Positions 1 through 25,512 of a DNA stretch of 64,000 bases are shown in pieces. The DNA is from a virus. The translations under genes were made by a program, and so were the position numbers. Where the stretch lies: positions 1-64,000 of IMG/VR virus record IMGVR_UViG_3300044846_004119; one strand, given 5' to 3'. Under the pieces are notes generated by a model. That model was given only the letters and a program-made list of their open reading frames with translations. It had not been told where the DNA came from and searched no databases. Positions within the stretch are counted from its first letter, which is position 1. Every line of letters starts with the position of its first letter.

Positions 1-740
1 AACTTCAGGTTCATCAGGTTCAAGTGGAACAAGTGGTTCTTCAGGAACATCAGGTACAAGTGGTTCTTCAGGAACTAGCGGAACAAGAGGAACTTCAGGT
101 TCTTCAGGAACTAGTGGAACATCAGGTACAAGTGGTTCATCAGGTTCAAGTGGAACAAGTGGTTCTTCAGGTACTAGCGGAACTTCAGGTTTAAGTGGAA
201 CTTCAGGAACTAGCGGAACATCAGGTTCAAGTGGTACTTCAGGTACGAGTGGTTCTTCAGGAACTAGTGGAACTTCAGGTTCATCAGGTTCAAGTGGAAC
301 AAGTGGTTCTTCAGGAACATCAGGTACAAGTGGTTCTTCAGGAACTAGCGGAACAAGAGGAACTTCAGGTTCTTCAGGAACTAGTGGAACATCAGGTTCA
401 AGTGGTACTTCAGGTACGAGTGGTTCATCAGGAACATCAGGTACAAGTGGTTCATCAGGTTCAAGTGGAACAAGTGGTTCTTCAGGTACTAGCGGAACTT
501 CAGGTTCAAGTGGAACAAGTGGTTCTTCAGGAACTAGCGGAACTTCAGGTTTAAGTGGAACTTCAGGTACGAGTGGTTCTTCAGGAACTAGCGGAACAAG
601 AGGAACTTCAGGTTCTTCAGGAACTAGTGGAACTTCAGGTTCATCAGGAACTAGTGGAACTTCAGGTTCATCAGGTTCAAGTGGAACAAGTGGTTCTTCA
701 GGTACTAGCGGAACTTCAGGTTTAAGTGGTACTTCAGGAG
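1..740 (+). repeat. Coding tandem repeat of 9-nt GGN-(ACN/TCN)-(TCN/AGY) units with higher-order blocks
   Basis: Gly at every third codon. The block ggaactagcggaacaagaggaacttcaggttcttcaggaactagtggaac recurs near 71, 341 and 584. Confidence 0.95.
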
Positions 741-1483
741 TATCTTTATCTGTTTCAGATGAAGGAACATTAGTAACCGCAGGTGTAACATCAATGAACT
801 TTGTTGGTACAGGTGTTTCAGTTACAGGTACAGGTACTTCAGTTACAGTAACTGTAACAGGTGGAGGAGGTAGTGGAACTTCAGGAACAAGCGGTGGCGG
901 AGGCGGTGGTGGAGGTGGAACTTCAGGAACTAGTGGAACTGGATTTAACACCATTTCAACTCCAAGTGATAATAGAGTATTAACATCCGACGGTACTACA
1001 AATGCTGCCGTCGCTGAAACTTATTTAACTTTTAGTTCAGGTCCGCCTAGTGTTTTTACAATTACCGGTTCAATGGTTAATATTCATAACCCAATTGCTC
1101 AATTATCCGGAACCACTGGTGGTTATGGTGATATTGTGACATTTGGTACTGGAGCAAGTTTAACGGCAGGAAAAGTTTATTATTTAAATACTTCACTTGC
1201 GTGGACTTTAACCGATGCAAACGCGGCATCAGGTGCTACAGGAATGTTAGGGGTTGCTTTAGGTACAACAGTTTCGGATGGACTTGTAGTTAGGGGTTAT
1301 GTTAAAAACGCGGCATTTACCTCAACGGACGGAAAAATACTTTACCTTTCCACAACAACTGGTGATTTAACATCAACCGCCCCTTCAGGAGCTTTAGACA
1401 TTGTAAGGATTGTTGGTTACCAAATAAGTGCATTATATGATATAATTTACTTTAATCCTTCAAATGATTGGGTAGAAATTTAA
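2..1483 (+). CDS. 5'-truncated collagen-like (Gly-X-Ser) fibre protein with C-terminal globular domain
   Basis: Frame 2 reads TSGSSGSSGTSGSSGTSGTS... with no stop from nt 2 into the tracked ORF 794..1483 (same frame; linker LSGTSGVSLSVSDEGTLVTAGVTSM). The C-terminal WTLTDANAASGATGMLGVALG...LYLSTTTGDLTSTAPSG...VRIVG...IYFNPS domain is typical of phage fibre/decoration tips. Confidence 0.85.
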   Translation, partial: TSGSSGSSGTSGSSGTSGTSGSSGTSGTRGTSGSSGTSGTSGTSGSSGSSGTSGSSGTSGTSGLSGTSGTSGTSGSSGTSGTSGSSGTSGTSGSSGSSGTSGSSGTSGTSGSSGTSGTRGTSGSSGTSGTSGSSGTSGTSGSSGTSGTSGSSGSSGTSGSSGTSGTSGSSGTSGSSGTSGTSGLSGTSGTSGSSGTSGTRGTSGSSGTSGTSGSSGTSGTSGSSGSSGTSGSSGTSGTSGLSGTSGVSLSVSDEGTLVTAGVTSMNFVGTGVSVTGTGTSVTVTVTGGGGSGTSGTSGGGGGGGGGTSGTSGTGFNTISTPSDNRVLTSDGTTNAAVAETYLTFSSGPPSVFTITGSMVNIHNPIAQLSGTTGGYGDIVTFGTGASLTAGKVYYLNTSLAWTLTDANAASGATGMLGVALGTTVSDGLVVRGYVKNAAFTSTDGKILYLSTTTGDLTSTAPSGALDIVRIVGYQISALYDIIYFNPSNDWVEI

Positions 1484-1493
1484 TAAATAAACT

Positions 1494-2009
1494 ATGATTA
1501 GAACAGTTGAAGGTCAAACTTATAATCCACCAAAAGAAGGGTTAATGAGTAGCTCAGGTCAAACAATAACTTTTACCGAAGCGGTTATTGATAGTGTTCT
1601 AATACCAGCTAACACATTTGCGCAATATGATATAGTTGATATACTTAATAGAGTGGTAAAAACTGGCACAAATCAAAATGTAATTGTTAAAATCCGTATT
1701 GGCCCATCTATTAATACTTCACAAACTTTAGTTGGTACAAGTTCACAAGCGGGCACAGTTAACGTATTAACACCAATATTTCGAAGATTGTTTATTCAAA
1801 ATGTTAGTAATTCAACATATGTATTAAATGAAGGAACGACTTACACCGGGGTGATAGACCTAAGTCCTTCCATTGCATACAGCAACATCACCACTATAGA
1901 TTGGACTGTAGATAATTATATTATTATTACAATAATTTCGAGTACAGCAGTAACTGTATTTCCTGCAGACGTTGAATGGTCAACATATATTGTAACAAAA
2001 TTAGTTTAA
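1494..2009 (+). CDS. Hypothetical beta-rich structural protein, paralog 1 of 3
   Basis: 171-aa ORF; shares TE.VI.SVLIP.NT...D......R..KTG.N pattern with the next two ORFs. Confidence 0.7.
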   Translation: MIRTVEGQTYNPPKEGLMSSSGQTITFTEAVIDSVLIPANTFAQYDIVDILNRVVKTGTNQNVIVKIRIGPSINTSQTLVGTSSQAGTVNVLTPIFRRLFIQNVSNSTYVLNEGTTYTGVIDLSPSIAYSNITTIDWTVDNYIIITIISSTAVTVFPADVEWSTYIVTKLV

Positions 2010-2010
2010 T

Positions 2011-2502
2011 ATGATAAGAAAACGAAATGGTAAATTATTAAGAATGGCTCAAAATGGGACAATTGGTACCTCTTTTGCTTGTGCAACTGAAACGATTATA
2101 GGTTCAGTTGATTTACCTCCTGATTTTTTAATTTCAGGGGCAATAATTTTAATCAGAGCTAACTTTATAAAAAGTGGGGCAAATAACCAAATAACACTAA
2201 AACTTTATTTTAATACATCGGAAAGTTTATCTGGTGCATTATTATTAGCAACTGGTGGGTCACCATCAACAACTGATTTATCCCCATATATATATAGAGT
2301 TTTTTGTTTTGATAGCTCATCAACCGCAAAGGGTATGTTTTCAACTGCTAACTTCTTTAATGATATAGGTGACTTTGCAACAACTGTGAGTTCATTTTCA
2401 TTTACAGATTGGTTACCAAGAGGTGGTAAGTTTTTTATTACAGGACTTAGAGCATCCGGTACGGATACCATAAAATCATTAGGAATAACAATAGAGGTAT
2501 GA
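2011..2502 (+). CDS. Hypothetical beta-rich structural protein, paralog 2 of 3
   Basis: 163-aa ORF; TETIIGSVDLP...IRANFIKSGANN...LYFNTSESLSGA. Confidence 0.7.
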   Translation: MIRKRNGKLLRMAQNGTIGTSFACATETIIGSVDLPPDFLISGAIILIRANFIKSGANNQITLKLYFNTSESLSGALLLATGGSPSTTDLSPYIYRVFCFDSSSTAKGMFSTANFFNDIGDFATTVSSFSFTDWLPRGGKFFITGLRASGTDTIKSLGITIEV

Positions 2503-3002
2503 ACACAAAAATAAACGGAAAGGGAATGAATAGTATTTACAACACAACTCCCGTAACTTCATCCGGTACGACGAGTCAAGTAATTATGCAATCTTTATTA
2601 GTTCCAGGAGGTACATATACATCAGGAGATTTAATTCAAATAACAAGTTTATTTTCTAAGACTGGTATTGGTGGAACAAACGGTTATACGTTTTTTGTTA
2701 ATACATCAGTATCTGTTTCTGGTGCTAGTCAAATAGCTGTGCGCGGTACCGCAACAGGAAATGGGTTTGCTTTTTTTAGTAGACATTTATTTATTTACGA
2801 ACAAACAGGAACAGGAACAGGTACTCTACAAGGAACAGAAACATTTTCTAGCACATTTCAAATTGCTAGTGAATATGTTAGGGGTCGAAAAACAAATACA
2901 AATATTAATTGGGTAAATGACGTTTATATCTTTGCAACTTGTCAATTAACTAGTGCATCAGATAGTGTTTCTCAAATATATATGAAAATATGGGAATATT
3001 AA
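2499..3002 (+). CDS. Hypothetical beta-rich structural protein, paralog 3 of 3
   Basis: 167-aa ORF, ATGA-coupled to the previous gene; SQVIMQSLLVPGGTY...FSKTGIGG...FFVNTSVSVSGA. Confidence 0.7.
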   Translation: MNTKINGKGMNSIYNTTPVTSSGTTSQVIMQSLLVPGGTYTSGDLIQITSLFSKTGIGGTNGYTFFVNTSVSVSGASQIAVRGTATGNGFAFFSRHLFIYEQTGTGTGTLQGTETFSSTFQIASEYVRGRKTNTNINWVNDVYIFATCQLTSASDSVSQIYMKIWEY

Positions 3003-3244: not shown

Positions 3245-3619
3245 TTAACAATAATTTGAATATGATTTTTCCTCAACAAATAAGGAGCCATATTTTAAAT
3301 TAATTTCTTTTTTAATTTCGGCTCTTTTATCATTTGTTGTGTATACCGACCTAGCAAGTTCAATAAATTCAATATCAAATACTTTATCTCGTTCTTTATC
3401 ACGGATATCATCTTCAATCTTCCAAAGACTTTCATTAACTAATAATAAATTATTAAAATCGTCTGATTCAATTTTTAATTGATTAAATACGACATCATAT
3501 AGATAATCGTATTCTGTAATAATATTAAATAGTTTGGACTCTTCGGTAATATTGTTTTTTTTAATGTTTAGAATTGATAATTTATCAACTATTTCTCCAA
3601 TTGAAACTTTAATATTCAT
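3245..3619 (-). CDS. DUF6165-like protein
   Basis: VSIGEIVDKLSIL..K...L..VNESLWKIEDDIR..E....F...FIELARSVY.TNDKRAEIK.EIN..YGS...EEKSY matches the DUF6165 pattern. Confidence 0.75.
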   Translation of the reverse strand: MNIKVSIGEIVDKLSILNIKKNNITEESKLFNIITEYDYLYDVVFNQLKIESDDFNNLLLVNESLWKIEDDIRDKERDKVFDIEFIELARSVYTTNDKRAEIKKEINLKYGSLFVEEKSYSNYC

Positions 3620-6417
3620 TATAATAAATGTTGTATTCTATCAATAACCATTTGAGATGTTATTGATTTATGGCATTCAAACTGTCTTTCAGTTCCTTTA
3701 TGTTCAGGACACCAATTCCAATCACCTTTATCAAATTTAAACATTGGGTTATTCCAACATCCGTTACAAACTGAAGGATTCGTTATTCTTGTACAATTAG
3801 ATGTAAATTCATGGTCAGGTTCCGTAAAGTTAGAAATCATAACAACGTGTTTACCTAACGCCCATGATAACCATGATAAACCACTTGATAGTCCAATAAA
3901 GAATTCACTATGATGAATACAATTCATCGTACTCTCAATTGATGTGTCTTTTAATTTAGTAACACCATCCATACGGTTACTTTCTTTGGATACATTAATT
4001 ACTTTGTAACCTTTTGACGTTAGATAATCAATAAGTTCTCTCCACCCATTTGGGTTATTCCAATACTTAACACCCGCAGTTGATTCATTTGCGATAGTCA
4101 CATACTTCTCAATAAATGGTCGTTTAGATGGGATAAAATCAATTTTTGGTTTAATTTCGTTAAACTCTAAACCAATGATATTTGTTATTGCTTTTTGTAA
4201 TGGGATTGTATTTGGTAATTCGGGTTCTTTATTTGTATCATAGAACCACCCAATAGTATACATAGCAATTAAATCATGAGCTGTAGCACTTGGCTCGACA
4301 AATTCAAGTTCAGGATAAGAGTTTCTAAATAATTTATTCCAAAATGTTGAAACAATTACATGACAATTGTGTTTCTTTTTAAACTCTAAAACATATGGTA
4401 TCCAAGCAACACTATCACCGAGAGAACTAGAATCAAATGAAATGAATACTCTTTTGTTATCGAAATTAGGTTTATAACTATAAATTAACTCATCACCATC
4501 AAAAACTTTAATATCCCAATCAGTATAGTATTGTCTATTAAGTTTAGTCCACATGTTAGGTTTTAATTCGGTATTATAAATTAAATTACCGTTATCGTAA
4601 AACAGTACTTTATATTGTTTAACACCCGTTCCCTTTATTTCAAAAAATGGGTTATTAACAAAATGAACAGTACAATCAATCTTGTCTTCAATCTTAGGTA
4701 CTATCTTTTTGGTGTTGTTAATATTATCAACTAACAACATTTTTGTATCCGTTGAATTATACTCTTTTTTAATTAGTTTAGTTACCTCATACATTTTTAA
4801 CATGCGTTCACAAATAACCGACCAATCAAACTTCTCTCTATTTTTTAAAGTTTGGTCCACGTAGAAATTATAATTACTCATAATTTCTTGTATCCCATTT
4901 GCAACTGAATTAGAACTTAATTCTGAAACAATCATACCTTTAATTTTTTGGGTACCACTATAAGTACCAACAATTGGTATCCCGCAAGAAATCGCTTCAA
5001 GTAATGTTAAATTAGGATGACCCGCCTCTAAACAAGATGGGTGTAGAAAAATTGAATGCGATTTGTATAATTCTAATATCTCATCCTCATTTGGATTTGT
5101 TAATAATAGTGTTAATTTATCGTATTCTAATAAATCTAAATGGTGTTGGAAAAAGTTTTTATTGTTTTCGGGGCCAGCAATTGTAATTGGTAAATCTAAC
5201 ATTTTTGCCGCCTCAATCGCATATCTAAAACCTTTTCTATCATAAGATGCATCACCACCAATACCATTGTTTGCTAAACATAATAATTTATGTTCAGTTC
5301 GGTATGGTTGGTCAACTTTAAAAAAGTTAGTATCAACTCCGTGAGTTAAATAAAATAATTTATCTGTTTCATCAAAATAATCAATAAGAAATTCTGCATG
5401 ACAGAATGAAATTACTGACTTTTGAATGGCTTCTAAATTTTGTTTGTAATTAAATGAGTCTTTACCATTGTATACAACATGATGGTCATGTAATGAAAAG
5501 ATATAAGGTATACCTCTTTCGTAAGCTTCTAACGCTAAGTTAGCGATATGAATATGTATAATATCGGTATTATCAAGGTCAACTTCATTTAGATATTTAA
5601 TCTCAGAAGAATGTCCTAATAAATTTAAATTGTTGTGGTAATTGAAGATAATCTTCTCAACCGCCCCCCATCCATTTGGTGGAATAGGTATTACTCCTGG
5701 TGTTACTTGTGTTATTCTCATTTTAAATTTTTTTATCCCCCATTTTTTTTCGAATACTTTTTCCATTAATTTTGTTTTAAAGTATAGGTCTTCTTTTTTT
5801 ATTAGTCTATTGCTTTCTGAGGTTACATGATAAACCACAGAATTTTTTATTAATGCGTGTTTAATATTGTATTTATGTAATGTTAAACCATAATCATCAT
5901 CTTGACACCAAAAATTAAATCTTTCATCAAAATCACCTATAATGTCAAGAACACTTTTTTTAACTAAAATACACCATCCAAGAAGTTCAACCCCTGTGGT
6001 ATATCCTGTGTAAACATTACCTTCATTAAATAATCCATAATAGTATTTATTAAACCAATCAGGTTCAAATGGTGAGAATGATTTAATATTAGGGTCTGAA
6101 TGGTATTCAACCATTATGTTATCTAACCATTCAGGTGTAAAAACTAAATCATTATTAATTATTAAAACCCAATCATTAGTACAATATTTTAAACCAATAT
6201 TTAAAAATCGGTTATAGTGAAAATCTTGATTTAATTTGATGTAGTCAACATTTGGATAATCATAGATAAATGTTGAGTTGTAATTTGATTCAATTAGTTT
6301 AATGTTAAATTTATAATTACCATTTGTTAATGATAAGGTATCTATGGTTCTTTTAGTTAATTCATAGAATTCGGTATCATTAGTATTTGTTAAACAAATT
6401 ACATCAATATTAATCAT
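3619..6417 (-). CDS. Three-module glycosyltransferase: GT2-like + GT4 + Aah/TibC-type (autotransporter strand-loop-strand) O-heptosyltransferase
   Basis: N-term GT-A (LIINNDLVF, FDERF.FWCQDDD). Middle GT4 (IPPNGWGAVEKII...FLHPSCLEAGHPNLTLLEAISCGIPIVG). C-term SSSLGDSVAWIPY...KYWNNPNGW...FIGLSSGLSWLSWALGKHVVMISNFT...CNGCWN...WCP...FECHKSIT. Confidence 0.85.
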   Translation of the reverse strand: MINIDVICLTNTNDTEFYELTKRTIDTLSLTNGNYKFNIKLIESNYNSTFIYDYPNVDYIKLNQDFHYNRFLNIGLKYCTNDWVLIINNDLVFTPEWLDNIMVEYHSDPNIKSFSPFEPDWFNKYYYGLFNEGNVYTGYTTGVELLGWCILVKKSVLDIIGDFDERFNFWCQDDDYGLTLHKYNIKHALIKNSVVYHVTSESNRLIKKEDLYFKTKLMEKVFEKKWGIKKFKMRITQVTPGVIPIPPNGWGAVEKIIFNYHNNLNLLGHSSEIKYLNEVDLDNTDIIHIHIANLALEAYERGIPYIFSLHDHHVVYNGKDSFNYKQNLEAIQKSVISFCHAEFLIDYFDETDKLFYLTHGVDTNFFKVDQPYRTEHKLLCLANNGIGGDASYDRKGFRYAIEAAKMLDLPITIAGPENNKNFFQHHLDLLEYDKLTLLLTNPNEDEILELYKSHSIFLHPSCLEAGHPNLTLLEAISCGIPIVGTYSGTQKIKGMIVSELSSNSVANGIQEIMSNYNFYVDQTLKNREKFDWSVICERMLKMYEVTKLIKKEYNSTDTKMLLVDNINNTKKIVPKIEDKIDCTVHFVNNPFFEIKGTGVKQYKVLFYDNGNLIYNTELKPNMWTKLNRQYYTDWDIKVFDGDELIYSYKPNFDNKRVFISFDSSSLGDSVAWIPYVLEFKKKHNCHVIVSTFWNKLFRNSYPELEFVEPSATAHDLIAMYTIGWFYDTNKEPELPNTIPLQKAITNIIGLEFNEIKPKIDFIPSKRPFIEKYVTIANESTAGVKYWNNPNGWRELIDYLTSKGYKVINVSKESNRMDGVTKLKDTSIESTMNCIHHSEFFIGLSSGLSWLSWALGKHVVMISNFTEPDHEFTSNCTRITNPSVCNGCWNNPMFKFDKGDWNWCPEHKGTERQFECHKSITSQMVIDRIQHLL

Positions 6418-6418
6418 A

Positions 6419-7108
6419 TTAATAAACTGTTGAGTGTATTTCTAAATCATCTCCATGTTCTGAAGAATAATAATAGGTCGCCAATGATTTTCTATATTCT
6501 CCATCAGGACAATTTAATGGTGTTGGGTGACCATGCCAAGAATCTTTAGAAGTTCCAAAAATAATCATTCTATTAAAAGTTGGGTAAACTTTTTTAACAC
6601 ATACCCCACCGTCACTTGGTTTTTTATCCCATAATTCTAAAGCTCCTTCCCAACTCTCTTCCCAACCCTCATTAAGGTAAAATAAAACATTTAATCTTCT
6701 GAATTTAGAATCATCAAATGGTGCTCTACTAAAATCAATATGTATGTTTAATTTACCACCTTTAGGTATTAAATGAATACCACCACCATTAAAATTTGAG
6801 TCAGAAAATAAATCAGATATCCCTGTTAGTTCACTTAAAAAATTTACAAACTCATCTGAGTTTAAAAATGATAAGACTTGATAAACTTCACCACCTGACT
6901 CATCAATGTGGGAGATACCTGTTTTAATTTCTTTATCGTTTAAAAATGTTGAGACATTACCTTTAATAGATTTTAAATGCTCGGCATTATTAAATTTTTT
7001 AAGTAATTCACTATCAAACAAATCGTCAATGACGTAATGTTCAAACGGTGAATTAAACTTAAAAATTTCCTTATGTTTTAAAACAGTATTTAAATTTTTT
7101 TGTAACAT
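6419..7108 (-). CDS. 2OG-Fe(II) oxygenase, prolyl-hydroxylase-like
   Basis: GGGIHLIPKGGKLNIHIDF (HxD), RRLNVLFYLN..W...W.G.LELW, P.FNRMIIF...SWHGH, RKSLATYYY. Confidence 0.85.
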   Translation of the reverse strand: MLQKNLNTVLKHKEIFKFNSPFEHYVIDDLFDSELLKKFNNAEHLKSIKGNVSTFLNDKEIKTGISHIDESGGEVYQVLSFLNSDEFVNFLSELTGISDLFSDSNFNGGGIHLIPKGGKLNIHIDFSRAPFDDSKFRRLNVLFYLNEGWEESWEGALELWDKKPSDGGVCVKKVYPTFNRMIIFGTSKDSWHGHPTPLNCPDGEYRKSLATYYYSSEHGDDLEIHSTVY

Positions 7109-7120
7109 ATTATTTTTTTT

Positions 7121-7666: not shown

Positions 7667-7667
7667 G

Positions 7668-11329: not shown

Positions 11330-11331
11330 TG

Positions 11332-16400: not shown

Positions 16401-18733
16401 CGACCCAAACTCCGACCCAAACACCAACTGAAACTCCGACAAATACTCCAACTGAAACTCCAACAAATACGCCCACACCAACTAACACGCCAACACCAAC
16501 AGTTACGCCAACACCAACTAACACTCCAACACCAACTGAAACGCCAACAAATACCCCAACTGAAACACCAACAAATACTCCAACTGAAACACCAACAAAT
16601 ACTCCAACTGAAACGCCAACAAATACTCCAACTGAAACTCCAACAAATACTCCAACTGAAACCCCAACAAATACTCCAACAAATACTCCAACTGAAACTC
16701 CAACTAACACTCCAACCCCAACTGAAACTCCAACAAATACTCCAACTGAAACGCCAACTAACACTCCAACCCAAACTGAAACACCAACAAATACGCCAAC
16801 AAATACTCCAACGCCAACTAACACTCCAACCCCAACTGAAACACCAACAAATACCCCAACTAACACTCCAACACCAACTCAAACGCCTACACCAACTAAC
16901 ACTCCGACACCAACAGTCACACTTGGGTTAACTCCAACACCAACAAATACTTCAACCCCGACAAATACTATAACGCCAACAAATACCCCTACAACAACAA
17001 ATACTCCAACCCAAACACCGACTAACACCCCAACCCCAACAAATACACCAACCCAAACATCAACTAACACCCCAACCCAAACTAACACTCCGACAAATAC
17101 TCCAACTCAAACTCCAACAAATACTCCAACAAATACTCTAACACCAACACCAACAAATACACCAACAAATACAACAACAAATACACCAACAAATACTGTG
17201 ACTCCAACCCAAACACCAACTAACACTCCAACCCAAACACCAACTAACACTCCAACACCAACAAATACACCAACTCAAACACCGACAAATACTCCGACAA
17301 ATACTGTAACTAACACCCAAACACCAACAAATACACCAACAAATACACCAACTCAAACACCAACTGAAACTCCAACAAATACTCCGACAAATACTGTAAC
17401 TAACACCCAAACACCAACAAATACGCCAACAAATACTGTGACTAACACCCCAACTGAAACTCCAACAAATACGCCAACCCAAACTAACACTCCAACTAAT
17501 ACTGTAACACCAACAGTTACACCAACATCACCGCCAGAATTACCAATTTATACTGGTGAAACTGTTTGTGATATTCCATATAACATTAACACAGGGATTA
17601 CAGGTTCTTGGCAGATTACAGTTCAGTTAGGTTCGTATACGGGAACCGTTGCCTGTACTTTTAATGCATATCAGGTACCAGATAAGTTCCAAGTTTTTTG
17701 GGATGGGAATTTGGTTATTGATACAGGGTTTAGGGGTAACGCCATTTTTAATTCACAATTAAATGCCTTAGGATATCCAAGTGTTGTAGGTACAGGTTTT
17801 GTTACTGCTTCTTGGACTAAATTAACAGCGTTTCCTGATTTCGCAACAGTTGTGGTTACCGCTCCTATTGATTCAACTAGATTTTATTTTAAATTGGGTT
17901 GTCCGGCTGTAACACCAACACCAACGGTAACCCCAACCCACACACCAGCACCAACAAATACCCCAACTAATACTCCAACACCTACACCTTTACCGATAAT
18001 ACCACTATGTTCTGTATTAATTAATGGGGGTACTGACGTATCCGCCTATTTTCCATCATCAAATACTAACGTATTGTTAGGTAATTCTTTTACTTTTTCC
18101 CCAGATATTGCACATACAACAACTAAACTATGGTTGTATGATGGGACAATTCTAGAATATGACATAACATTAAGTCCTTGGTCGGCAACGTTCAACAGAA
18201 CTATCGAATACCCTTTAGGTGTTAATTTAGGGAATGGTTTAGGCTCCATTACCAACACTGAGTTAATCTCAACAGACGATACAGTAACACCTAATCAAAT
18301 AATTGTTTTAGATATTACCACAAGTACCGCAGTCTCAACTGTAATTGGAACACTAGGGGTTGGTAGGTATGTTTCGGGTGATATTTTATTAACAACTACA
18401 AATAAAATATTAGTTACTAATGAAGGTAATGATGGAGTATTCCTTAGTCAATATAGTTATCCGTCAGGTACTTTTGAAGTTGAGGTCGATATTACGTCAA
18501 CCACAAGCCAACCGTATGGTTTATTTATTGATAGTGGTAATATATATGTTTGTAACAGTGGTGGTGAAATATATAATGTTGATGTTAACTTCCCATACAC
18601 ACAAACATTATCTAATATCTCAGGATTATTTGTTGGAGGAGCATCTCAAGTACCAAGTTGTTGTGATACTAACCTAAACTTACCACCAACTCCTACACCA
18701 ACAAATACTCCAACACCTACACCAATCGCATAA
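13469..18733 (+). CDS. Mucin-like Thr-Pro repeat protein with interspersed Cys-containing globular domains (probable virion surface fibre)
   Basis: 1754 aa; about 1150 aa of [11 protein letters not shown] repeats; N-terminal Cys-rich domains, a central Cys doublet, a beta-sandwich-like domain and a C-terminal propeller-like domain. Confidence 0.9.
13925..17530 (+). repeat. Thr-Pro coding microsatellite tracts (13925-15440 and 15631-17530)
   Basis: ACN-CCN dinucleotide-codon repeats with AAY/GAA/CAA spacers; the block ccaggattatcaccaaccacaac occurs at 14261, 14381, 14501, 14681, 14891 and 15071. Confidence 0.95.
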
Positions 18734-18821
18734 CCAACAACAGAATTATTCATAAAAAAACTAAAGGGTAATACTTTATTAACAACAAATATTTTTTATA
18801 TTTTATTTAAAAATAAAAACC

Positions 18822-20069
18822 ATGAAAATATTTGTTCAGATAGCCTCTTATCGTGACCCCCAACTTATCCCAACAATCAAATCAATGTTGGAGAATGCCA
18901 AAAACCCAAAAAATTTAGTAATCGGAATTTGTCGTCAATACCATCCTGAGGATGGGTTTGATGATTTATCAGAATATGCTAAAGATAAACGATTTAGAGT
19001 TATTGATGTTTTATATTCTGACGCTAAAGGAGTTTGTTGGGCAAGAAACCAAGTTCAACAATTATATAAAGGCGAAGAATATACCCTACAAATAGACTCC
19101 CATATGAGATTTGAAAAATATTGGGACGACACCTTAATCAAAATGGTTAAACAACTTCAAAAGAAAGGATTTGAGAAACCTTTATTAACAGGATACGTAT
19201 CTTCATTTGACCCGGACAATGACCCGGAAGGCAGAGTTACGGTACCTTGGAGAATGGCTTTTGATAGATTCATTCCTGAAGGGGCGGTATTCTTTTTACC
19301 TGAAACAATTCCTGGATGGGAAACCCTTAAAGAACCGGTTACTTCACGATTTTATTCTGCCCATATGGCATTCACTCTTGGTCAATTTAGTGTTGAAGTT
19401 CAACACGACCCTGAATTTTATTTTCACGGAGAAGAGATATCAATCGCCGTTAGAGCATTCACTCACGGATATGATTTATTCCACCCACATAAAGTTGTGA
19501 TTTGGCACGAATACACCCGTAAAGGTAGAACAAAACAATGGGACGACGATAAAGAGTGGGGAAAGAAAAATGAATTATCCCATAAAAAAAATCGTCAACT
19601 ATTTGGTATGGATGGTGAAGAGGTAACAATGGATTTTAGTTATTATGGATTTGGAACCGAAAGAACTTTAAAAGACTATGAGATTTATTCAGGTCTTAGA
19701 TTTTCAAATAGAGCCGCACAACAATATACTTTAGATAAACATTACGCACCTAATCCAACAATTTATGAAACTGAAGAAGAATGGTTAGCAAGTTACGCCA
19801 CTATTTTTAAACATTGTATTGATGTTGGTTTTACTCAAGTTCCAGAAAATGACTATGATTTTTGGGCGGTAATTTTTGAGGGTAGTAATGGTAATGAGTT
19901 ATATAGGAAAGATGCGGATAAGGAAGAAATTAATCGATTAAAATCTGACAAAGATGGATATTGTAAAATATGGAGAGATTTTCAAACAACTGAGAAACCA
20001 AATAAATGGATTGTATGGCCACATAGTGAGTCTAAAGGTTGGTGTGAGATAATAACAGGTAACTTATAA
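18822..20069 (+). CDS. GT60-family (Skp1 hydroxyproline/polypeptide alpha-GlcNAc transferase-like, Pfam GlcNAc type) glycosyltransferase
   Basis: IFVQIASYRDP, KGVCWARN..Q.LY.GEEYTLQIDSHMRF...WD, FYSAHMAF, HDPEFYFHGEEISIAVRAFTHGYDLFHP...IWHEY. Confidence 0.9.
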   Translation: MKIFVQIASYRDPQLIPTIKSMLENAKNPKNLVIGICRQYHPEDGFDDLSEYAKDKRFRVIDVLYSDAKGVCWARNQVQQLYKGEEYTLQIDSHMRFEKYWDDTLIKMVKQLQKKGFEKPLLTGYVSSFDPDNDPEGRVTVPWRMAFDRFIPEGAVFFLPETIPGWETLKEPVTSRFYSAHMAFTLGQFSVEVQHDPEFYFHGEEISIAVRAFTHGYDLFHPHKVVIWHEYTRKGRTKQWDDDKEWGKKNELSHKKNRQLFGMDGEEVTMDFSYYGFGTERTLKDYEIYSGLRFSNRAAQQYTLDKHYAPNPTIYETEEEWLASYATIFKHCIDVGFTQVPENDYDFWAVIFEGSNGNELYRKDADKEEINRLKSDKDGYCKIWRDFQTTEKPNKWIVWPHSESKGWCEIITGNL

Positions 20070-20071
20070 AA

Positions 20072-20920
20072 ATGGTTAAAATTTACGATGAATATGATTC
20101 ATATTTAGAGGGAGGACATTTTTCATCACCAAGAAAAAATTTGGGGAATAAATTGTTTATATATTCCGCTTGTAGAATAATTAGTGAACTATTAGGGTAT
20201 GAGTTAATATCTCCCGAAAACGCGTTAGTAAGAAGAGAAGATACCGAAAATGGACAATATAAAGAAATCCTATTCCCATTTAAAGGTGTTAAAGGAAATA
20301 TTGTGGATGACCCAATTAAAGTTATTCAAGATGGCGACATCATACAATTAGGTAGTATTGAAAATTTAATACAATCCTACCCAAATCATGGATTTTTAAA
20401 TCAATCATATTTTTCAAAATATGATTACATTAAACCATATAAGACTAAGGTTAAAGAATATTTTAAAAGTATCGTTAAAGATAAAAGGGTTGGTAACGAT
20501 TTAGTAATTATGTTAAGAAGTAGTAATTACGACGGAAGTTTTGTTTTACCCGACAGTTATTACCTTAATATTATATCTCAAGAAACTTTTGATAATTTAT
20601 ATATTTCATTTGACCATATAAACAAACATCAATCATTAATTAATAAATTAGAGAAATATAACCCTAAATTAATTGATGGTGATATACTTGAAGTTTTTTC
20701 AGAAATCACATCATTTAATACAATAATCGCCGCTCAAGGAACATTTTCTTTTTGGGCTTGTTTTTTATCTAACGCCAATAAAATATATTGGCCGATTACC
20801 AATGATGGTCCAAATTCCGGTAAAAACTCAAATAACCCCGTGTTTAACTCATATGTTAATTTAACGGTCGATGATGAACCAAGATATGAATTAATAAACG
20901 TAACAGATATATACAAATGA
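20072..20920 (+). CDS. GT11-like (alpha-1,2-fucosyltransferase-like) glycosyltransferase
   Basis: NLGNKLFIYS (cf. GRLGNQMFQYA), YFSKYDY, VIMLRSSNY, DSYY, IIAAQGTFSFWACFLS (cf. STFSWWAA). Confidence 0.7.
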   Translation: MVKIYDEYDSYLEGGHFSSPRKNLGNKLFIYSACRIISELLGYELISPENALVRREDTENGQYKEILFPFKGVKGNIVDDPIKVIQDGDIIQLGSIENLIQSYPNHGFLNQSYFSKYDYIKPYKTKVKEYFKSIVKDKRVGNDLVIMLRSSNYDGSFVLPDSYYLNIISQETFDNLYISFDHINKHQSLINKLEKYNPKLIDGDILEVFSEITSFNTIIAAQGTFSFWACFLSNANKIYWPITNDGPNSGKNSNNPVFNSYVNLTVDDEPRYELINVTDIYK

Positions 20921-21597
20921 TAAAAACAATCAATTTTAGTCTTTTTGGTACTGAAATGAAGTATTACATGGGAGCCGAAAAAAATGTTATAATTAATAAA
21001 GAATTATTACCAGATTGGACAACCGTAATATATTACCATCCTCAAAACATAATTCAAGGTTATGTCGAAAAACTGTCTTCATTAGGTGCGACAATGGTGG
21101 ATGTGTCAAATATAAAGTTAGGTGATAAAGAATCAATTCACTTCCCATATTTTTGGAGATTTCTTTCATTTTTACAAGACAGTCCCTCAATAGTTAGAGA
21201 TTTGGACAGTAGAATTTCTGAAAGAGAAGTAAAATATATTAGAAAATGGGAAGAAACAAATAAAGATTATTTTATTATCCGAGACCATCCGTGGCATGCA
21301 CCCGTACCAAGTGGGTTATTTGGTATTAAGAAAAAAATAGAAGAGTTTGAAAAACACTTTATTGAGTTTGTTAATATTGATGAGTTACGTTGGGGGTCCG
21401 ACCAAGAAATTTTAAGAATTTATATGGAAAATATTAGTGACGAAAATGTGTTTTATTGTGGTTACGATATTCAAACCAATTATATACATAGAGACGATAA
21501 AACTTTTTTTATTGGAATGCAAATGAATGAAAATGATGAACCAACAGTCCCAAGTGGCGTACAGTGTTTAAATTACCTAAACGAAATAAATTTATAA
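20917..21597 (+). CDS. Putative GT-A fold glycosyltransferase
   Basis: INFSLFG...WRFL...IVRDLDSRIS.RE...W...IIRDHPWH...SGLFG...DQEIL, a conserved pattern in viral and bacterial glycan clusters. Confidence 0.6.
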   Translation: MIKTINFSLFGTEMKYYMGAEKNVIINKELLPDWTTVIYYHPQNIIQGYVEKLSSLGATMVDVSNIKLGDKESIHFPYFWRFLSFLQDSPSIVRDLDSRISEREVKYIRKWEETNKDYFIIRDHPWHAPVPSGLFGIKKKIEEFEKHFIEFVNIDELRWGSDQEILRIYMENISDENVFYCGYDIQTNYIHRDDKTFFIGMQMNENDEPTVPSGVQCLNYLNEINL

Positions 21598-21598
21598 A

Positions 21599-22360
21599 AT
21601 GAAGTATTGTTTTACAACTTTGGCTGTTGGTGAGCCATATGAAGAATTAACCGCAAAGTTATACACAAGTTTAAGAGATAAAACTCAAAACTGTGAATTT
21701 TTTATAACAACAAATAACCCTAACTTCCCTGATTTAGGTGAAAAAATTCACATTAATAGAGAGTCATTACAAAGTCTACACGATTCTAAAGGTGGGTTTA
21801 GTTTTCATTTAAATTATAAGTGTTTATCAATTAAACACGTTTTGTCTAATGAAAAACAAATGTTAGCGTTAGACACAGAATTTAAAAAATTTGATTACGT
21901 AATCTTTACTGACGGTGATTGGATTTTGGAAAGCGGGTTTTCTGAAGAGAAGATTTTAAATATGTTAAATTATATGGAAACCGAAGGATTTGATTTTGCA
22001 TTTGAAAGACCTGCAAGTATCGGTGATGGTAGACGAGACCCTGAAAATAGTTTCTATAGAGATAAAATTTATGATTATGATATATTAGAATATGATAAAT
22101 GGGATGAGGCTCACGTTGTTAATGAACAATGTTTGGTATTTAAAAATAATTATAAATTTAGATTTTTTGCCCAAAGATGGGAACAATTTTTATGGTATTC
22201 AATCCATAATGATATTAGAAACTACCCTGACGGTTTTGAGATTGGGGTATCGGCTTTAGAAGCAGGGATGAAATGGAACTACAATGGAGTGTTTAATCAC
22301 TTTTTACAAGGATGTTTCGGATTTTATACTAAACTTGGTGATTATCACATTAGATTTTAA
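21599..22360 (+). CDS. Putative GT-A fold glycosyltransferase
   Basis: FTTLAVGEPY, K.LSIK, YVIFTDGDW (DxD) in a glyco-operon context. Confidence 0.55.
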   Translation: MKYCFTTLAVGEPYEELTAKLYTSLRDKTQNCEFFITTNNPNFPDLGEKIHINRESLQSLHDSKGGFSFHLNYKCLSIKHVLSNEKQMLALDTEFKKFDYVIFTDGDWILESGFSEEKILNMLNYMETEGFDFAFERPASIGDGRRDPENSFYRDKIYDYDILEYDKWDEAHVVNEQCLVFKNNYKFRFFAQRWEQFLWYSIHNDIRNYPDGFEIGVSALEAGMKWNYNGVFNHFLQGCFGFYTKLGDYHIRF

Positions 22361-22375
22361 TTATATATATATATT

Positions 22376-22912
22376 ATGTCACACAAAGAACAACAAGATT
22401 TCCTAACGTATGTTAGAGACAAATTCCCAAATAAATTTGAGAATTGTAGAGTTTTAGATATCGGCTCATTAGATATCAATGGTAATAACAGGTATTTGTT
22501 TACAAATTACGAATACATCGGACTAGATATTGGTGAAGGAAACAACGTAGATGTTGTATGTAGAGGTCACGAATATAATGATGAAAAATTATTTGACGTA
22601 ATTGTGTCTTCAGAATGTTTTGAACACGATGAATTTTGGGAATTAACAATAAAGAAAGGTATCGATTTACTTAAACCAGATGGCGTGTTTTTATTTACTT
22701 GCGCCACAACAGGTAGACCGGAACACGGAACAAAAAGAACATCACCAAGCGATAGTCCATTTACTTCAAGTTTAGAAAACAATTATTATCGAAATTTAGA
22801 AGAAGATGATATTCGACAATCAATTAATGTTGATGAAATATTTTCAGAATATGAATTTCAAAGTAGACTAAATTGGCCACAAGATTTGTATTTTTGGGGT
22901 ATTAAAAAATAA
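22376..22912 (+). CDS. Class I SAM-dependent methyltransferase, paralog of 7121..7666
   Basis: MSH..QQDF...VLDIGSLDING...SECFEHD...LFTCATTGRPEHGT.R.SP.D.PF...DLYFWGIKK shared with the leftward copy. Confidence 0.85.
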   Translation: MSHKEQQDFLTYVRDKFPNKFENCRVLDIGSLDINGNNRYLFTNYEYIGLDIGEGNNVDVVCRGHEYNDEKLFDVIVSSECFEHDEFWELTIKKGIDLLKPDGVFLFTCATTGRPEHGTKRTSPSDSPFTSSLENNYYRNLEEDDIRQSINVDEIFSEYEFQSRLNWPQDLYFWGIKK

Positions 22913-22915
22913 AAT

Positions 22916-23839
22916 ATGAAATCAAAAATTGTAACGGCTTATTGGATGGATGTTGAGGGGTATCCATTTCAAGGAGTACTTCCAGTTAGAAAAATAAGAT
23001 ATCAAGGTTCTTTAATTTCTCATTGTACTGGTAGTGGACTACCGGTTATTTGCTATACTCATAGTAAAAATTATGACGAACTTAATGATATTAAAGTAAA
23101 GTATAATTTAACTAATTTAGAGTTGAAAATATTAGAATTATCTGATGTAAAATATCACGCTGAAATTGAAATGATTAGAAATAATAATTTTGATACCGAT
23201 TTGGATGGTAGAGGTCCTGAAATAATGTGGGGAAAATTTGATGTGTTAGAAAGAGAACTTGACGGATTTGATAGGGTTTATTGGGTGGATGTTGGTTTAC
23301 AACACCCGGGCATATTCCCTTGGATGTACTCTAAAGTTCACAATGAGAATTCTGAAAATTTAGGCGTACCAACAAATTGGTGGGCTCATTTAGATGTGTT
23401 TAATTTTTCAAAATTAATTGATAGTGAAGTGTATGATAAATTAAATAAAATCTGTGAAAATAAAATAATGTTTGTTTGTTCATATGGTCCTCAAATAAGT
23501 TATCCGTTTTTAAATTATGGAATATTAAACAAATCGTTTGAATCTCCATACCCGGTTGGTGGTATGTTTGGTGGAGATGTTCAAGTATTAAAGAAATATA
23601 TAAATTTATTTTGGGAATTCACTGAGAAAATTTTAGAAAAAAACTTACTTTGTACTGAAGAAGTAATTATGAAACCGTCCTACGATTTAATTGATAACGA
23701 TGAAAAGGTTACACTTATGTTTAACGCGTTTGCGTCTGGGGAACACGATGATTATCACTACACTATGTGGAATGAAGGAAAAAATACACCAAAACCTTTC
23801 TATATGATGTGGCACAATATAAAAAATTTTAAAATATGA
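22916..23839 (+). CDS. HtrL/YibB (WlaTC)-like glycosyltransferase
   Basis: IVTAYW, MWGKF, VYWVDVGL, VGGMFGG, LLCTEEVIM. Confidence 0.6.
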   Translation: MKSKIVTAYWMDVEGYPFQGVLPVRKIRYQGSLISHCTGSGLPVICYTHSKNYDELNDIKVKYNLTNLELKILELSDVKYHAEIEMIRNNNFDTDLDGRGPEIMWGKFDVLERELDGFDRVYWVDVGLQHPGIFPWMYSKVHNENSENLGVPTNWWAHLDVFNFSKLIDSEVYDKLNKICENKIMFVCSYGPQISYPFLNYGILNKSFESPYPVGGMFGGDVQVLKKYINLFWEFTEKILEKNLLCTEEVIMKPSYDLIDNDEKVTLMFNAFASGEHDDYHYTMWNEGKNTPKPFYMMWHNIKNFKI

Positions 23840-25512
23840 ATAAAATAACATTAGTAACCGGTTTATGGGATTTAGGTAGAGATAAACTCACCGAAGGGTG
23901 GTCTCGGACATATCAACATTATTTAGATAAATTTCAACAACTTTTACAAGTTGATGTAAATATGATAATTTTTGGTGATGAGGAATTAGAAAAATTTGTT
24001 TCAGAGAATAGACGTAATGAAAATACACAATTTGTTCGCAGAGAGTTATCTTGGTTTAAAAATAATGATTTTTATGATAAAATACAAAAGATAAGAACCA
24101 ATCCTGATTGGTATAATCAAGTTGGTTGGTTAACAGAGTCAACTCAAGCTAAACTAGAGATGTATAACCCTTTAGTTATGTCTAAAATTTATCTTTTACA
24201 CGACGCAAAAATTTTAGATAAGTTTAATTCAGAATATATGTTTTGGATTGACGCGGGATTAACAAATACAATTCACCCTGGATATTTTACAAGTGATAAG
24301 GTTTTAGATAAACTACCTAAGTTAGTTAAGAATTTCCATTTTGTTTGTTTTCCTTATGAAACAACTAGTGAGATTCACGGATTTAAATATCAAGAGTTAT
24401 GTGAATTAGCAGGAAAACCTGTTAATATGGTTGCAAGAGCAGGATTCTTTGGTGGAAAAAAAGATTTTATTTCTGAAATAAATAGTTTATACTATGGATT
24501 AATGAACGATACATTATCCCAAGGATTGATGGGAACTGAAGAGTCGTTATTTACAATTATGACATACAAATACCCTAATTTAATTACTTATTCTGAAATT
24601 GAAGGTAATGGGTTAATGGGTAAATTTTTTGAGGATTTAAAAGATATGACAGTTGAGGTAAAATCGGAAGTATCAAAAGATGTTGTTGTTAATAATTTGG
24701 ACACATCAAAAGTTGGATTATACGTGATTACTTTTAACTCACCAAAACAATTGGAGGTTCTTATTCAGTCAATGTTAGATTACGATAAAGATTTTGTAGA
24801 GAAACCAAAGAAATTCTTATTAGATAATTCAACTGATTTATCAACAACACCAAGATATCTTGAACTATGTGAACAATATGGTTTTGAACATATTAAAAAA
24901 AATAATATAGGTATTGTTGGTGGTAGAGTATTTGTTGCCGAACATTTTGATGAAACTGATTTGGATTTTTATTATTGGTTTGAAGATGACATGTCATTTT
25001 ATCCTAAAAAGAATGAAGTTTGTAGAAATGGTTTTCCTCGTTTTGTGGGTAACTTATATCAAAAATCATTAGAGATTATTCAAAAAGAAAATTTTGATTT
25101 TTTAAAATTAAATTTTAGTGAATTTTACGGCTCAAACGATATTCAATTCTCATGGTATAATGTGCCCCAAGATTTCAGACAAAAACATTGGCCAAACAAT
25201 CCTAAATTACCTGTACAAGGATTAGACACCAATTCCCCCAAAACAAAATTTGATGAAATACATATTCACAAAGGATTACCATATGTATTGGGTGAGATTT
25301 TTTTATGTAATTGGCCAATTGTATTAACAAAAGAGGGTAATTATAAATGTTATTTAGAGACAAAATGGGCTCACCCTCACGAACAGGTACTAATGAGTTA
25401 TTCTTATCAAGAAACGGTTAAAGGTAATATTAAACCGGGATTACTGTTATTAACACCAACAGAACACAATCGATTTGACCATTATGACGGCTCATTAAGA
25501 AAAGAAAGTTAG
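23836..25512 (+). CDS. HtrL/YibB (WlaTC)-family protein fused to a C-terminal GT-A-like domain
   Basis: TLVTGLWDLGR...RTYQHYL...YNPLVMSK...FWIDAGL...AGFFGG...MGTEESLF; second domain YVITFNSPKQL...LLDNS...YWFEDD. Confidence 0.75.
   Translation: MNKITLVTGLWDLGRDKLTEGWSRTYQHYLDKFQQLLQVDVNMIIFGDEELEKFVSENRRNENTQFVRRELSWFKNNDFYDKIQKIRTNPDWYNQVGWLTESTQAKLEMYNPLVMSKIYLLHDAKILDKFNSEYMFWIDAGLTNTIHPGYFTSDKVLDKLPKLVKNFHFVCFPYETTSEIHGFKYQELCELAGKPVNMVARAGFFGGKKDFISEINSLYYGLMNDTLSQGLMGTEESLFTIMTYKYPNLITYSEIEGNGLMGKFFEDLKDMTVEVKSEVSKDVVVNNLDTSKVGLYVITFNSPKQLEVLIQSMLDYDKDFVEKPKKFLLDNSTDLSTTPRYLELCEQYGFEHIKKNNIGIVGGRVFVAEHFDETDLDFYYWFEDDMSFYPKKNEVCRNGFPRFVGNLYQKSLEIIQKENFDFLKLNFSEFYGSNDIQFSWYNVPQDFRQKHWPNNPKLPVQGLDTNSPKTKFDEIHIHKGLPYVLGEIFLCNWPIVLTKEGNYKCYLETKWAHPHEQVLMSYSYQETVKGNIKPGLLLLTPTEHNRFDHYDGSLRKES

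Follow-up and report, generated by a model that had tools for sequence, protein, structure and literature searches.

A candidate phage protein O-glycosylation island built around Thr-Pro-rich and collagen-like repeat proteins

Virus-encoded glycosylation of a virus's own structural proteins is known from giant viruses and mycobacteriophages and, at the level of a stain, from the jumbo phage XacN1. Here we analyse a candidate system of this known kind, a gene island of about 26 kb (positions 2–26332) in the first 64 kb of the IMG/VR phage contig IMGVR_UViG_3300044846_004119; this 64-kb stretch is referred to hereafter as the window. Mimivirus R699 is a collagen glucosyltransferase (PMC9546862). 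O-glycosylation of mycobacteriophage virions was shown by mass spectrometry (Freeman et al., 2023, PMC10527164, as cited in PMC12619734). Purified XacN1 virions gave two periodate-Schiff-positive bands, for which the authors suggested that ORF328 and ORF334 were responsible (PMC5852040). In protists, characterized members of glycosyltransferase (GT) family GT60 start mucin-type O-glycans on Thr-rich tracts (PMC8724618).

We consider it probable, from sequence comparisons, that the island glycosylates repeat proteins of the phage itself. It consists of two divergent operons, a leftward one (3245–13377, minus strand) and a rightward one (13469–25512, plus strand), around the gene for a 1754-aa Thr-Pro protein. 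A preliminary description of the window, made from the sequence alone, had listed glycosyltransferases, methyltransferases and a 2-oxoglutarate (2OG) oxygenase in these operons, together with the Thr-Pro gene and a Gly-Ser-Thr repeat fibre gene, and all of these elements were found where it had placed them. Its end point for the rightward unit, 25512, did not hold: the acceptor-like gene 25670–26332 belongs to the unit, which thus ends at 26332. Adjoining genes overlap by 4 nt at 8642/8645, 20917/20920 and 23836/23839, suggesting translational coupling. The contig (177,135 bp, 31% GC, classed as linear) is about 60% complete, and the window also carries genes for a tail sheath, a T4-type baseplate protein, gp32, a family-B DNA polymerase (PolB) and a SNF2 helicase. 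The sheath, baseplate, gp32 and PolB genes indicate a large myovirus.

The rightward unit contains the following genes.

13469–18733, plus strand: 1754-aa mucin-like Thr-Pro protein (37% Thr, 19% Pro; phrog_15511), candidate GT60 acceptor
18822–20069, plus strand: GT60-family glycosyltransferase (PF11397 'GlcNAc', 2.3e-70, 238.2 bits against a cut-off of 21)
20072–22360, plus strand: variable cassette genes for a weakly GT11-like 282-aa protein, a 226-aa protein and a 253-aa protein, each present in 5–8 of 80 related loci
22376–22912, plus strand: second Methyltransf_23 methyltransferase (PF13489 at 5.5e-8)
22916–23839, plus strand: 307-aa HtrL-like GT-A protein (hhalign against the N-domain of HtrL558, probability 86%, E 5e-6)
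23836–25512, plus strand: 558-aa dual GT-A protein, HtrL558, with an HtrL_YibB N-domain (PF09612, 5e-17) and a GT2-like C-domain
25670–26332, plus strand: 220-aa protein with a 140-aa N-domain and a Cys/Thr/Pro-rich tail, second candidate acceptor of the GT60 module

In a six-frame search the GT60 gene gave PF11397 matches of 196.5 and 40.9 bits. Its D92-S93-H94 motif is invariant in 13 homologues, including that of XacN1; D-x-H is the metal-binding motif of the GT27/GT60 GT-A fold. Homologues occur in the jumbo phages XacN1, Xoo-sp13, CM1 and RAS14, and the family was absent from 14 of 14 control prokaryote genomes. Like the GT60 enzymes of Dictyostelium and of the Trypanosoma cruzi mucins, the phage protein combines a D-S-H motif with a dense Thr(-Pro) mucin-like candidate acceptor (PMC8724618). 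It differs from them in being prokaryotic/viral and soluble, in carrying an extra C-terminal region of ~100 aa and in having an HtrL-type dual GT-A partner. We propose that it acts as an initiating polypeptide GlcNAc-transferase, a proposal on which the genomic pairing with Thr-rich genes bears.

The 1754-aa candidate acceptor, built on a basic 12-nt (T-P-T-x) repeat, has a 'beads on a string' layout: two small Cys-containing beta-sandwich domains with a TPTPTPT linker lead into long (T-P-T-x)n tracts and a Cys-rich module, and roughly the last 500 aa form globular domains. Thr makes up a fraction of 0.37, compared with a genome median of 0.054; Thr-rich ORFs also occur on the same contig 23 kb beyond the window. 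Its N-terminal 140–150 aa are kept at 32–53% identity in 32 relatives, and despite this divergence the linker Thr is invariant. The predicted model of the N-terminus (pLDDT 81) is Ig/FnIII-like. The end of the first domain ('...D-S-x-G-C-E') is reminiscent of SprB/PKD-type adhesin repeats of Bacteroidota. In the product of 13469–13918 and in its relatives, eight conserved cysteines are found in small domains, although the protein would be made in the cytoplasm; disulfides in these N-terminal domains would have to form after lysis.

Gene order was compared across the best 80 of 356 IMG/VR relatives of the GT60 gene (73–100% identity; 22 lineages after dereplication). In 69 of the 80 loci, Thr is more frequent than any other residue in the product of the gene directly 5' of GT60, on the same strand. 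The length of this product varies from 174 to more than 3300 aa, and the genes at this position are orthologous through a shared N-terminus of ~140 aa. Over the 22 lineages their median Thr fraction was 0.21, against 0.055 for other open reading frames (ORFs) of these loci (Mann-Whitney p 2.5e-12). The core order is Thr-rich gene, GT60 (80/80), variable stretch, HtrL558 (72/80), the homologue of 25670–26332 (76/80, at a median identity of 83% and with variable tails of up to ~600 aa) and PolB. Each of the remaining window enzymes is present in only 4–21 of the 80 loci.

The stretch between GT60 and HtrL558 is hypervariable. Across the 80 loci its 236 ORFs fall into 84 families at 50% identity; 27 Pfam families were matched, and all 25 listed are sugar-modifying. 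The transferases among them are GT25, GT10, GT34, GT2, GT11, GT7 and a PLOD-type GT domain. The others comprise FkbM and further methyltransferases, a rhamnosyl O-methyltransferase, carbamoyltransferase, DegT aminotransferase, nucleotidyltransferase, epimerase, GNAT and HAD proteins. This is what a glycan-building locus specific to each lineage would look like.

At the far end of the cassette, residues 3–255 of HtrL558 match PF09612 with 62.8 bits (gathering cut-off 24.1). The C-half had no match in Pfam, NCBIfam or PHROGs with the E limit set at 10, and its GT-A nature was revealed by fold: in the predicted model (pLDDT 86.9) both halves are GT-A domains (VIA Z 15.2 for residues 287–546 and 13.0 for 1–264). 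The best Foldseek matches were to two-domain transferases, namely Mimivirus R699, human LH3 and COLGALT1, and the polymerases LARGE1, K4CP and PmHS2, and the N-half resembled the PBCV-1 capsid glycosyltransferase A64R with a Z of 11.1. The fold is thus nearest to those of transferases for collagen and protein glycans. Judging from this model, HtrL558 could add two successive sugars, or a repeating disaccharide, to a primer laid down by GT60. The 307-aa protein and the HtrL558 N-domain have the motifs W-x-D-x-G and GG-x-FGG in common, and the XacN1 module contains a 307-aa homologue. Searches of PDB sequences with GT60 and with the HtrL558 profile returned nothing useful.

The genes of the leftward operon, and those between it and the contig start, are as follows.

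2–1483, plus strand: collagen-like gene with its 5' end lost at the contig start (PF01391, 9.3e-29), candidate TibC-type acceptor
1494–3002, plus strand: three paralogous small ORFs of 171, 163 and 167 aa (mutual phmmer E 1e-9 to 4e-7)
3245–3619, minus strand: DUF6165 protein, the last leftward gene (PF19662 at 2.5e-7)
3619–6417, minus strand: 932-aa fusion of GT2-like, GT4 and Aah/TibC-type domains (PF00535 1e-7, PF00534 1e-10, TIGR04414)
6419–7108, minus strand: 2OG-Fe(II) oxygenase of the P4H/OGFOD-like superfamily (PF13640 at 4e-16)
7121–7666, minus strand: Methyltransf_23 S-adenosylmethionine-dependent methyltransferase (PF13489 9.5e-8), 50% identical to the 22376–22912 paralogue
7668–8645, minus strand: 325-aa protein, a possible GT-A candidate (phmmer E 1e-20 against residues 328–542 of the 8642–11329 protein)
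8642–11329, minus strand: 895-aa protein with an N-terminal GT4 (PF00534 at 1e-10), a 325-like middle and a C-terminal third
11332–12282, minus strand: FkbM methyltransferase (PF05050 6.9e-18; TIGR01444 90.9 bits)
12436–13377, minus strand: 313-aa GT9 heptosyltransferase-like protein, the first leftward gene (PF01075 at 4e-15)

The 932-aa fusion is divided into a GT2-like domain (residues 1–230), a GT4 domain (about 233–560) and an Aah/TibC-type domain (602–930). On residues 607–930, TIGR04414 scored 293.7 bits, above the NCBIfam equivalog cut-off of 200. The TibC structures 4rb4 and 4rap matched at E 5e-52, with residues 602–925 of the query aligned to residues 43–380 of the chain, the whole catalytic domain. 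Cysteines C884, C887, C903 and C915 align to the finger cysteines of TibC and are kept in 98–100% of 48 dereplicated phage homologues, suggesting a putative iron finger as in TibC. The naming of GT60 and Aah/TibC in the preliminary description as two protein-directed families was thus correct, the TIGR04414 and 4rb4 matches supporting the one and the PF11397 match the other. Like Escherichia coli Aah and TibC, members of the BAHT family, the phage enzyme is homologous over the full catalytic domain, has the four finger cysteines and adjoins a repetitive Ser-rich gene. Unlike them it is phage-encoded and fused to GT2-like and GT4 domains, and its neighbour is collagen-like rather than an autotransporter beta-helix; no adjoining autotransporter passenger was found in the window. 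The triple fusion is unusual, most relatives being stand-alone enzymes or GT4 fusions.

The 313-aa GT9 protein is a distant relative of the TibC domain (TIGR04414 E 1e-6, below the cut-off; BLAST E 2e-7) and, from its sequence, may be a second, divergent BAHT-like enzyme. Its C-terminus is Cys-rich (C-S-L-F-C ... C-L-E-N ... F-E-C-H) and recalls the TibC finger.

For the TibC-type enzyme, 80 loci were kept of 219 IMG/VR contigs (51–91% identity; 45 lineages after dereplication). In 50 of the 80 a collagen-like ORF lies convergent to the enzyme gene, just 3' of it. DUF6165 is present in 13 of the 45 lineages, in some directly 3' of TibC. The neighbours of the two enzymes were then contrasted after dereplication at 90% identity, with near-full 6-kb flanks required. 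A G-[ST]-[ST] collagen-like ORF was found within 6 kb in 23 of 30 TibC lineages and in none of 16 GT60 lineages, while a Thr-Pro-rich ORF was found within the same distance in 12 of 16 GT60 lineages, as compared with 5 of 30 TibC lineages. Fisher p was ~4e-6 for both contrasts over all clusters, although relatedness among the loci means that these p-values overstate independence. Each enzyme therefore tracks its own class of acceptor-like gene. Independent assortment of transferase genes and Thr/Ser-rich genes in relatives, which the preliminary description had said would refute its proposal, was not what we found.

The collagen-like protein itself has more than 240 residues (over 80 triplets) of G-T/S-S, after which come a Gly-rich linker and, at the C-terminus, a domain of 190 aa; its G-X-Y triplets are uninterrupted and its DNA has tandem repeats of 9–36 nt. 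In the relatives, Ser and Thr make up ~70–100% of the X and Y positions in most of the repeat runs listed, and the ORFs reach 920 triplets and 3195 aa. Pro accounts for 1% of the window protein, and the Pro or charged X/Y positions of collagens are lacking. The collagen helix is stabilized by Pro/Hyp or charged residues at X and Y. In BclA of the Bacillus anthracis exosporium and in Riftia cuticle collagen, G-X-Thr repeats carry Thr O-glycans that form or stabilize a hair-like nap; these repeats contain proline, and the enzymes belong to families unrelated to those of the island. The gene matches tail-fibre PHROGs through its repeats, a match that is compositional. A search of PDB sequences with the C-terminal 194 aa gave nothing useful and no solved relative. 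No continuation of the gene was found at the other end of the contig, which leaves the protein without its N-terminus. The three ~165-aa paralogues at 1494–3002 had no Pfam or PHROG match and were not found in related loci except for one hit, to the third; they could be fibre accessory or assembly proteins.

The GT60 module is also found in bacterial chromosomes. A scan of 185,579 species genomes identified 230 with GT60 homologues, and 80 loci were kept. The nearest are in Bacteroidota (57–81% identity; Saprospiraceae, Lewinellaceae, Cytophagales), followed by Gemmatimonadota at 50–53%. An HtrL558 homologue adjoins GT60 in 23 of these 80 loci from bacteria and metagenome-assembled genomes (MAGs), all 23 being among the 40 closest. 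With a relaxed Thr/Ser/Pro filter, a Thr/Ser/Pro-rich ORF lay directly beside GT60 in 10 of the 15 GT60+HtrL loci whose upstream flank was 3.6 kb or longer; a strict Thr-Pro filter gave almost no Thr-Pro neighbour. The trio of acceptor-like gene, GT60 and HtrL is carried on chromosomal contigs of Jiulongibacter (1.3 Mb, 42% GC), Arcticibacterium (667 kb, 38% GC), Lewinellaceae (611 kb, 62% GC) and Gemmatimonadaceae (1.2 Mb, 68% GC). The GC content of trio-bearing contigs spans 38–70% and, in the large contigs, is native. In our locus set the trio lies at L182:5945–13142, L195:6648–12468, L174:6000–10884 and L185:7314–10969 (Cytophagales, Lewinellaceae and Gemmatimonadaceae). A Tat-like RR leader was seen in the sequences of the acceptor-like proteins of Arcticibacterium and Lewinellaceae. 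Family annotation, which covered ten chosen proteins, gave an N-terminal PqqD domain (1.1e-7) in the Gemmatimonadaceae protein; the Lewinellaceae protein has a weak T9SS sorting tail. The Jiulongibacter locus adds a carbamoyltransferase, an FkbM-HtrL fusion and a second GT60, the gene set of phage XacN1. Judged by these sequences, the bacterial trio looks like an undescribed cytoplasmic mucin-type O-glycosylation module.

In the scheme that we infer, with its sugar attachments, donors, linkages and virion-surface acceptors, the island would be a cytoplasmic, phage-encoded protein O-glycosylation system of two enzyme/acceptor modules. The rightward module, the conserved core, would have as its acceptors the 1754-aa Thr-Pro protein and the Thr/Pro-tailed protein of 25670–26332. 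Thr (or Ser) would receive its first sugar, probably GlcNAc, from GT60, and the two-domain HtrL558 would extend the chain. The cassette of transferases, methyltransferases and other sugar enzymes, which differs between close relatives, would then finish a lineage-specific glycan. In the leftward, variable module, the TibC-type heptosyltransferase would modify Ser/Thr of the convergent, proline-free Gly-Thr/Ser-Ser collagen-like fibre, and the neighbouring GT4, GT9 and methyltransferase genes would elaborate the resulting glycan.

The cultured Xanthomonas phage XacN1 (AP018399) is among the closest described parallels. Its module encodes a GT60 (ORF334, 48% identity), a relative of the 307-aa protein and one of HtrL558 (ORF330, 41%), and the phage also has a GT9, a Thr-Pro-rich ORF350 and, after its baseplate wedge genes, a 3313-aa ORF325 with Thr-Pro linkers. 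It differs in having a carbamoyltransferase within the module, as in Jiulongibacter; its glycoproteins were not named and no pairing of enzyme and acceptor was proposed. The resemblance to giant viruses (Mimivirus R699 and L230, PBCV-1 A64R) lies in virus-encoded, cytoplasmic glycosylation of the virus's own fibre or collagen-like proteins. Mimivirus, however, modifies hydroxylysine in a collagen containing Pro and Lys, whereas the present collagen-like repeats have neither, and the similarity of HtrL558 to R699, although its top Foldseek match (E 1.8e-12), is at the level of fold, with 11–13% identity in the giant-virus comparison. In mycobacteriophages, as far as the account cited above describes them, transferases encoded by the phage are likewise believed to place O-glycans on its own structural proteins; there the acceptors are C-terminal tails of capsid and tail-tube proteins, while here the candidate acceptors are dedicated giant repeat proteins and the enzyme families are different.

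The number of transferase domains had been put at about 14. Nine are supported by an HMM, a fold or a profile comparison: the GT2-like, GT4 and TibC-type domains of the 932-aa fusion, the GT4 of the 895-aa protein, GT9, GT60, the two GT-A domains of HtrL558 and the 307-aa HtrL-like protein. Two more are leads, the 282-aa protein (GT11-like by weak matches to PF01531, 0.0056, and phrog_2644, 1.3e-4) and the 253-aa protein (an Atlas lead to GT8). Four pieces could be given no family, namely the 226-aa and 325-aa proteins and two parts of the 895-aa protein, its 325-like copy and its final 300 residues, so that 14 is an upper estimate. With an E limit of 10, searches of Pfam, NCBIfam and PHROGs gave no match for the 325-, 226- and 253-aa proteins or for residues 300–895 of the 895-aa protein. 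The 226-, 253- and 325-aa proteins were also considered as HtrL relatives, and hhalign against the HtrL558 profile was negative.

The sugar donors had been expected to come from the host or from elsewhere in the genome. Outside the window the contig carries a gene for an RmlB-like dTDP-glucose 4,6-dehydratase (139658–140554), whose 321 bits on TIGR01181 fall slightly short of the equivalog cut-off of 365, and one for an RmlC-like 3,5-epimerase (140813–141334), a pair that may represent phage supply of 6-deoxyhexose donors. No RmlA or RmlD gene accompanies them on the contig, and no nucleotidyltransferase gene was found on the ~60%-complete contig. Together with the NTP-transferase, DegT and epimerase genes in the cassettes of relatives, the pair indicates that donor supply is partly phage-encoded. 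The expectation of donors encoded elsewhere in the genome is thus borne out in part, the genes found covering only some of the supply.

Several points weigh against glycosylation of the phage's own repeat proteins as we propose it. In several GT60 lineages the upstream gene is only moderately Thr-rich (8–12%). No GmhA-type (SIS_2) gene for ADP-heptose was found on the 60%-complete contig. Fold and sequence searches with the globular parts of the acceptors gave no anchor or fibre match. Conservation of gene order in phages could in part reflect shared descent, or a 'plastic' region that gathers fibre and accessory genes. Among distant GT60-like genes (35–47% identity, ~300 aa) there was no HtrL partner and a Thr/Ser/Pro-rich neighbour in 0 of 57; the pairing is thus a property of this GT60 subfamily, which argues against the phage adjacency being due merely to chance within a plastic fibre region. 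Lipooligosaccharide core loci, too, contain genes of the HtrL family (PMC4172580), so that the HtrL family name does not decide the acceptor. This last point, the fact that GT4, GT9, GT2, GT25, HtrL and FkbM are typical of lipopolysaccharide (LPS) and polysaccharide loci, the O-antigen-like variation of the cassette and the well-known serotype conversion by phage transferases (PMC12619734) all fit an island that remodels the host envelope (LPS, capsule or an S-layer glycoprotein), for instance in superinfection exclusion, with the Thr/Ser-rich genes being neighbouring fibres with flexible linkers. We regard this as unlikely: flippase, polymerase, ligase and polyprenol-linked enzymes are all missing from the island, no membrane span is predicted in any of its enzymes, characterized members of both anchor-enzyme families act on polypeptides, each anchor enzyme pairs with a different class of repeat protein, and the GT60/HtrL/Thr-Pro trio persists in bacteria. 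Glycosylation of hypermodified phage DNA, with the repeat proteins unrelated to it, is the least credible of the alternatives. Phage transferases often modify DNA with diverse glycans, according to work cited in PMC12619734, and PolB lies ~6 kb from the island. Such a role would leave the repeat-protein pairing unexplained, and no thymidylate-synthase-like hydroxymethylase (PF00303) is encoded on the contig, itself ~60% complete. We know of no DNA-acting member of the GT60, TibC-type or HtrL families.

The remaining alternatives keep the glycosylated repeat proteins and change their route or their destination. The GT60 family includes the Skp1 hydroxyproline GlcNAc-transferase. If the 2OG oxygenase hydroxylated Pro of the Thr-Pro tracts, GT60 could put GlcNAc on hydroxyproline; PF13640 belongs to the prolyl-hydroxylase superfamily and Pro makes up 19% of the acceptor. 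The oxygenase is, however, absent from 80 of 80 GT60 loci and 80 of 80 TibC loci, even from loci L060 and L061, where the leftward operon is otherwise intact and in order, and its sole weak PDB match, the closest solved structure, is OGFOD1 (E 0.05). It is therefore an accessory gene of this genome, outside the conserved glycosylation system. With no conserved prolyl hydroxylase partner, the locus is unlike the Skp1/Gnt1 pathway; such a route was rejected as a general mechanism and, for this phage, is very improbable. Kinship of the oxygenase with the 210-aa ORF at 31480–32112 was not detectable. A destination outside the virion (decoys, released by lysis or intracellular, a matrix or an aggregate adhesin) would agree with the lack of a virion anchor, with N-terminal domains resembling adhesin extender modules and with bacterial counterparts whose Tat-like leaders, weak T9SS tail or PqqD domain make them look exported or processed. 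Set against this, the gene 25670–26332 and the fibre-like genes that follow share an upstream box with sheath and baseplate genes, the giant Thr-Pro-linker protein of XacN1 follows baseplate wedge genes in a phage whose virions contain glycoproteins, and the collagen-like repeats match tail-fibre families, though through composition. We think it improbable, if a little less so than the Skp1-like route. For glycosylation of the phage's own repeat proteins, the suggestion of a glycan coat on the phage's fibres keeps the support of the two enzyme families, the pairing, the bacterial trio and the XacN1 stain and loses the oxygenase; a 'methylated, branched glycan', mucus binding and shielding are conjecture.

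Whether the acceptors are virion proteins was approached through their globular parts and upstream sequences. The fold of the 1754-aa N-terminus was matched only by uncharacterized Caudovirales proteins and generic Ig/FnIII tandems, with E above 0.09. Searches of PDB sequences with the C-terminal 517 aa of this protein and with a profile of the 25670–26332 N-domain gave nothing useful, and an Atlas lead from the latter to BppU_N scored only 0.88. An exact TATTTATA box lies 14–30 nt upstream of 25670 (14 nt), 26380, the sheath gene and baseplate genes, a weak hint of late or structural co-regulation. Overall, matches to the TATTTATM box show no enrichment (19, with 23 expected), and only their position before structural-type genes is notable. 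The mucin gene has a one-base variant, so the box is not relied on. On balance we lean slightly towards the candidate acceptors being exposed on the virion. Just 3' of the island, 26380–28653 encodes a 757-aa protein with long Asn-rich short repeats (N-N-x-I-G-x-x-F-like) and has the late-type box; it is probably a beta-helical fibre.

These enzyme families occur on hundreds of environmental phage contigs, 356 (GT60) and 219 (TibC-type) in IMG/VR. In the literature searched, glycosylation of tailed-phage particles by phage enzymes was demonstrated only for mycobacteriophages, XacN1 providing a stain-level hint. The same literature contained neither of the two enzyme/acceptor pairs, no BAHT enzyme outside autotransporters, no GT60 with a conserved HtrL-type partner in phages or bacteria, and neither proline-free giant collagen-like acceptors nor the hypervariable cassette. 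It is possible, at somewhat less than an even chance in our estimate, that the island belongs to a widespread, undescribed prokaryotic and viral toolkit, in which an acceptor+GT60+HtrL module is common to Bacteroidota, Gemmatimonadota and jumbo phages, and BAHT enzymes heptosylate collagen-like phage fibres. The first would be the equivalent, in bacteria and phages, of eukaryotic mucin-type O-glycosylation, extending that process to bacteria and viruses. The second would mean that Aah/TibC-type enzymes have left the autotransporters, widening the BAHT substrate range; sugars might replace proline as the helix stabilizer, which would explain how giant proline-free collagen-like fibres stay folded. 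The hypervariable cassette would then be a 'glycan coat' locus through which phage lineages would each have a distinct virion 'glycotype', subject to diversifying selection like that on O-antigens and likely relevant to the adsorption, stability, grazing and host range of lake phages. The enzymes would also be useful for cytoplasmic glyco-engineering.

Near-identical DNA was present in at least 19 lake-water metagenome runs. In a sediment metatranscriptome, GT60, HtrL558 and 25670–26332 were covered only by short contigs, 90–95% alike, which provide no evidence that this phage is expressed. GT60 relatives occur on IMG/VR contigs of up to 322 kb, which makes it probable that the lineage is jumbo-sized; there may also be overlap with the 'moraphages' of Bacteroidota (PMC12619734). 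Some low-GC 'Saprospiraceae MAG' contigs carry GT60 at 67–69% identity, among them CALJOK010000014.1 (230 kb, 34% GC; L171) and L175. They may be jumbo-phage contigs binned into bacterial MAGs and, if so, would hint at the host group. An SmpB homologue, the tmRNA partner protein, is encoded on the phage contig at 137293–137727 (PF01668, 1.7e-45). Finally, the ~60-aa N-terminus of the LCIB-type carbonic anhydrase gene at 28681–29757 also opens other ORFs 5' of GT60 in relatives (L038–L042, L062, L064 and L068, at about 5.3–6.3 kb), which fits an adaptor domain shared by many cargo proteins.

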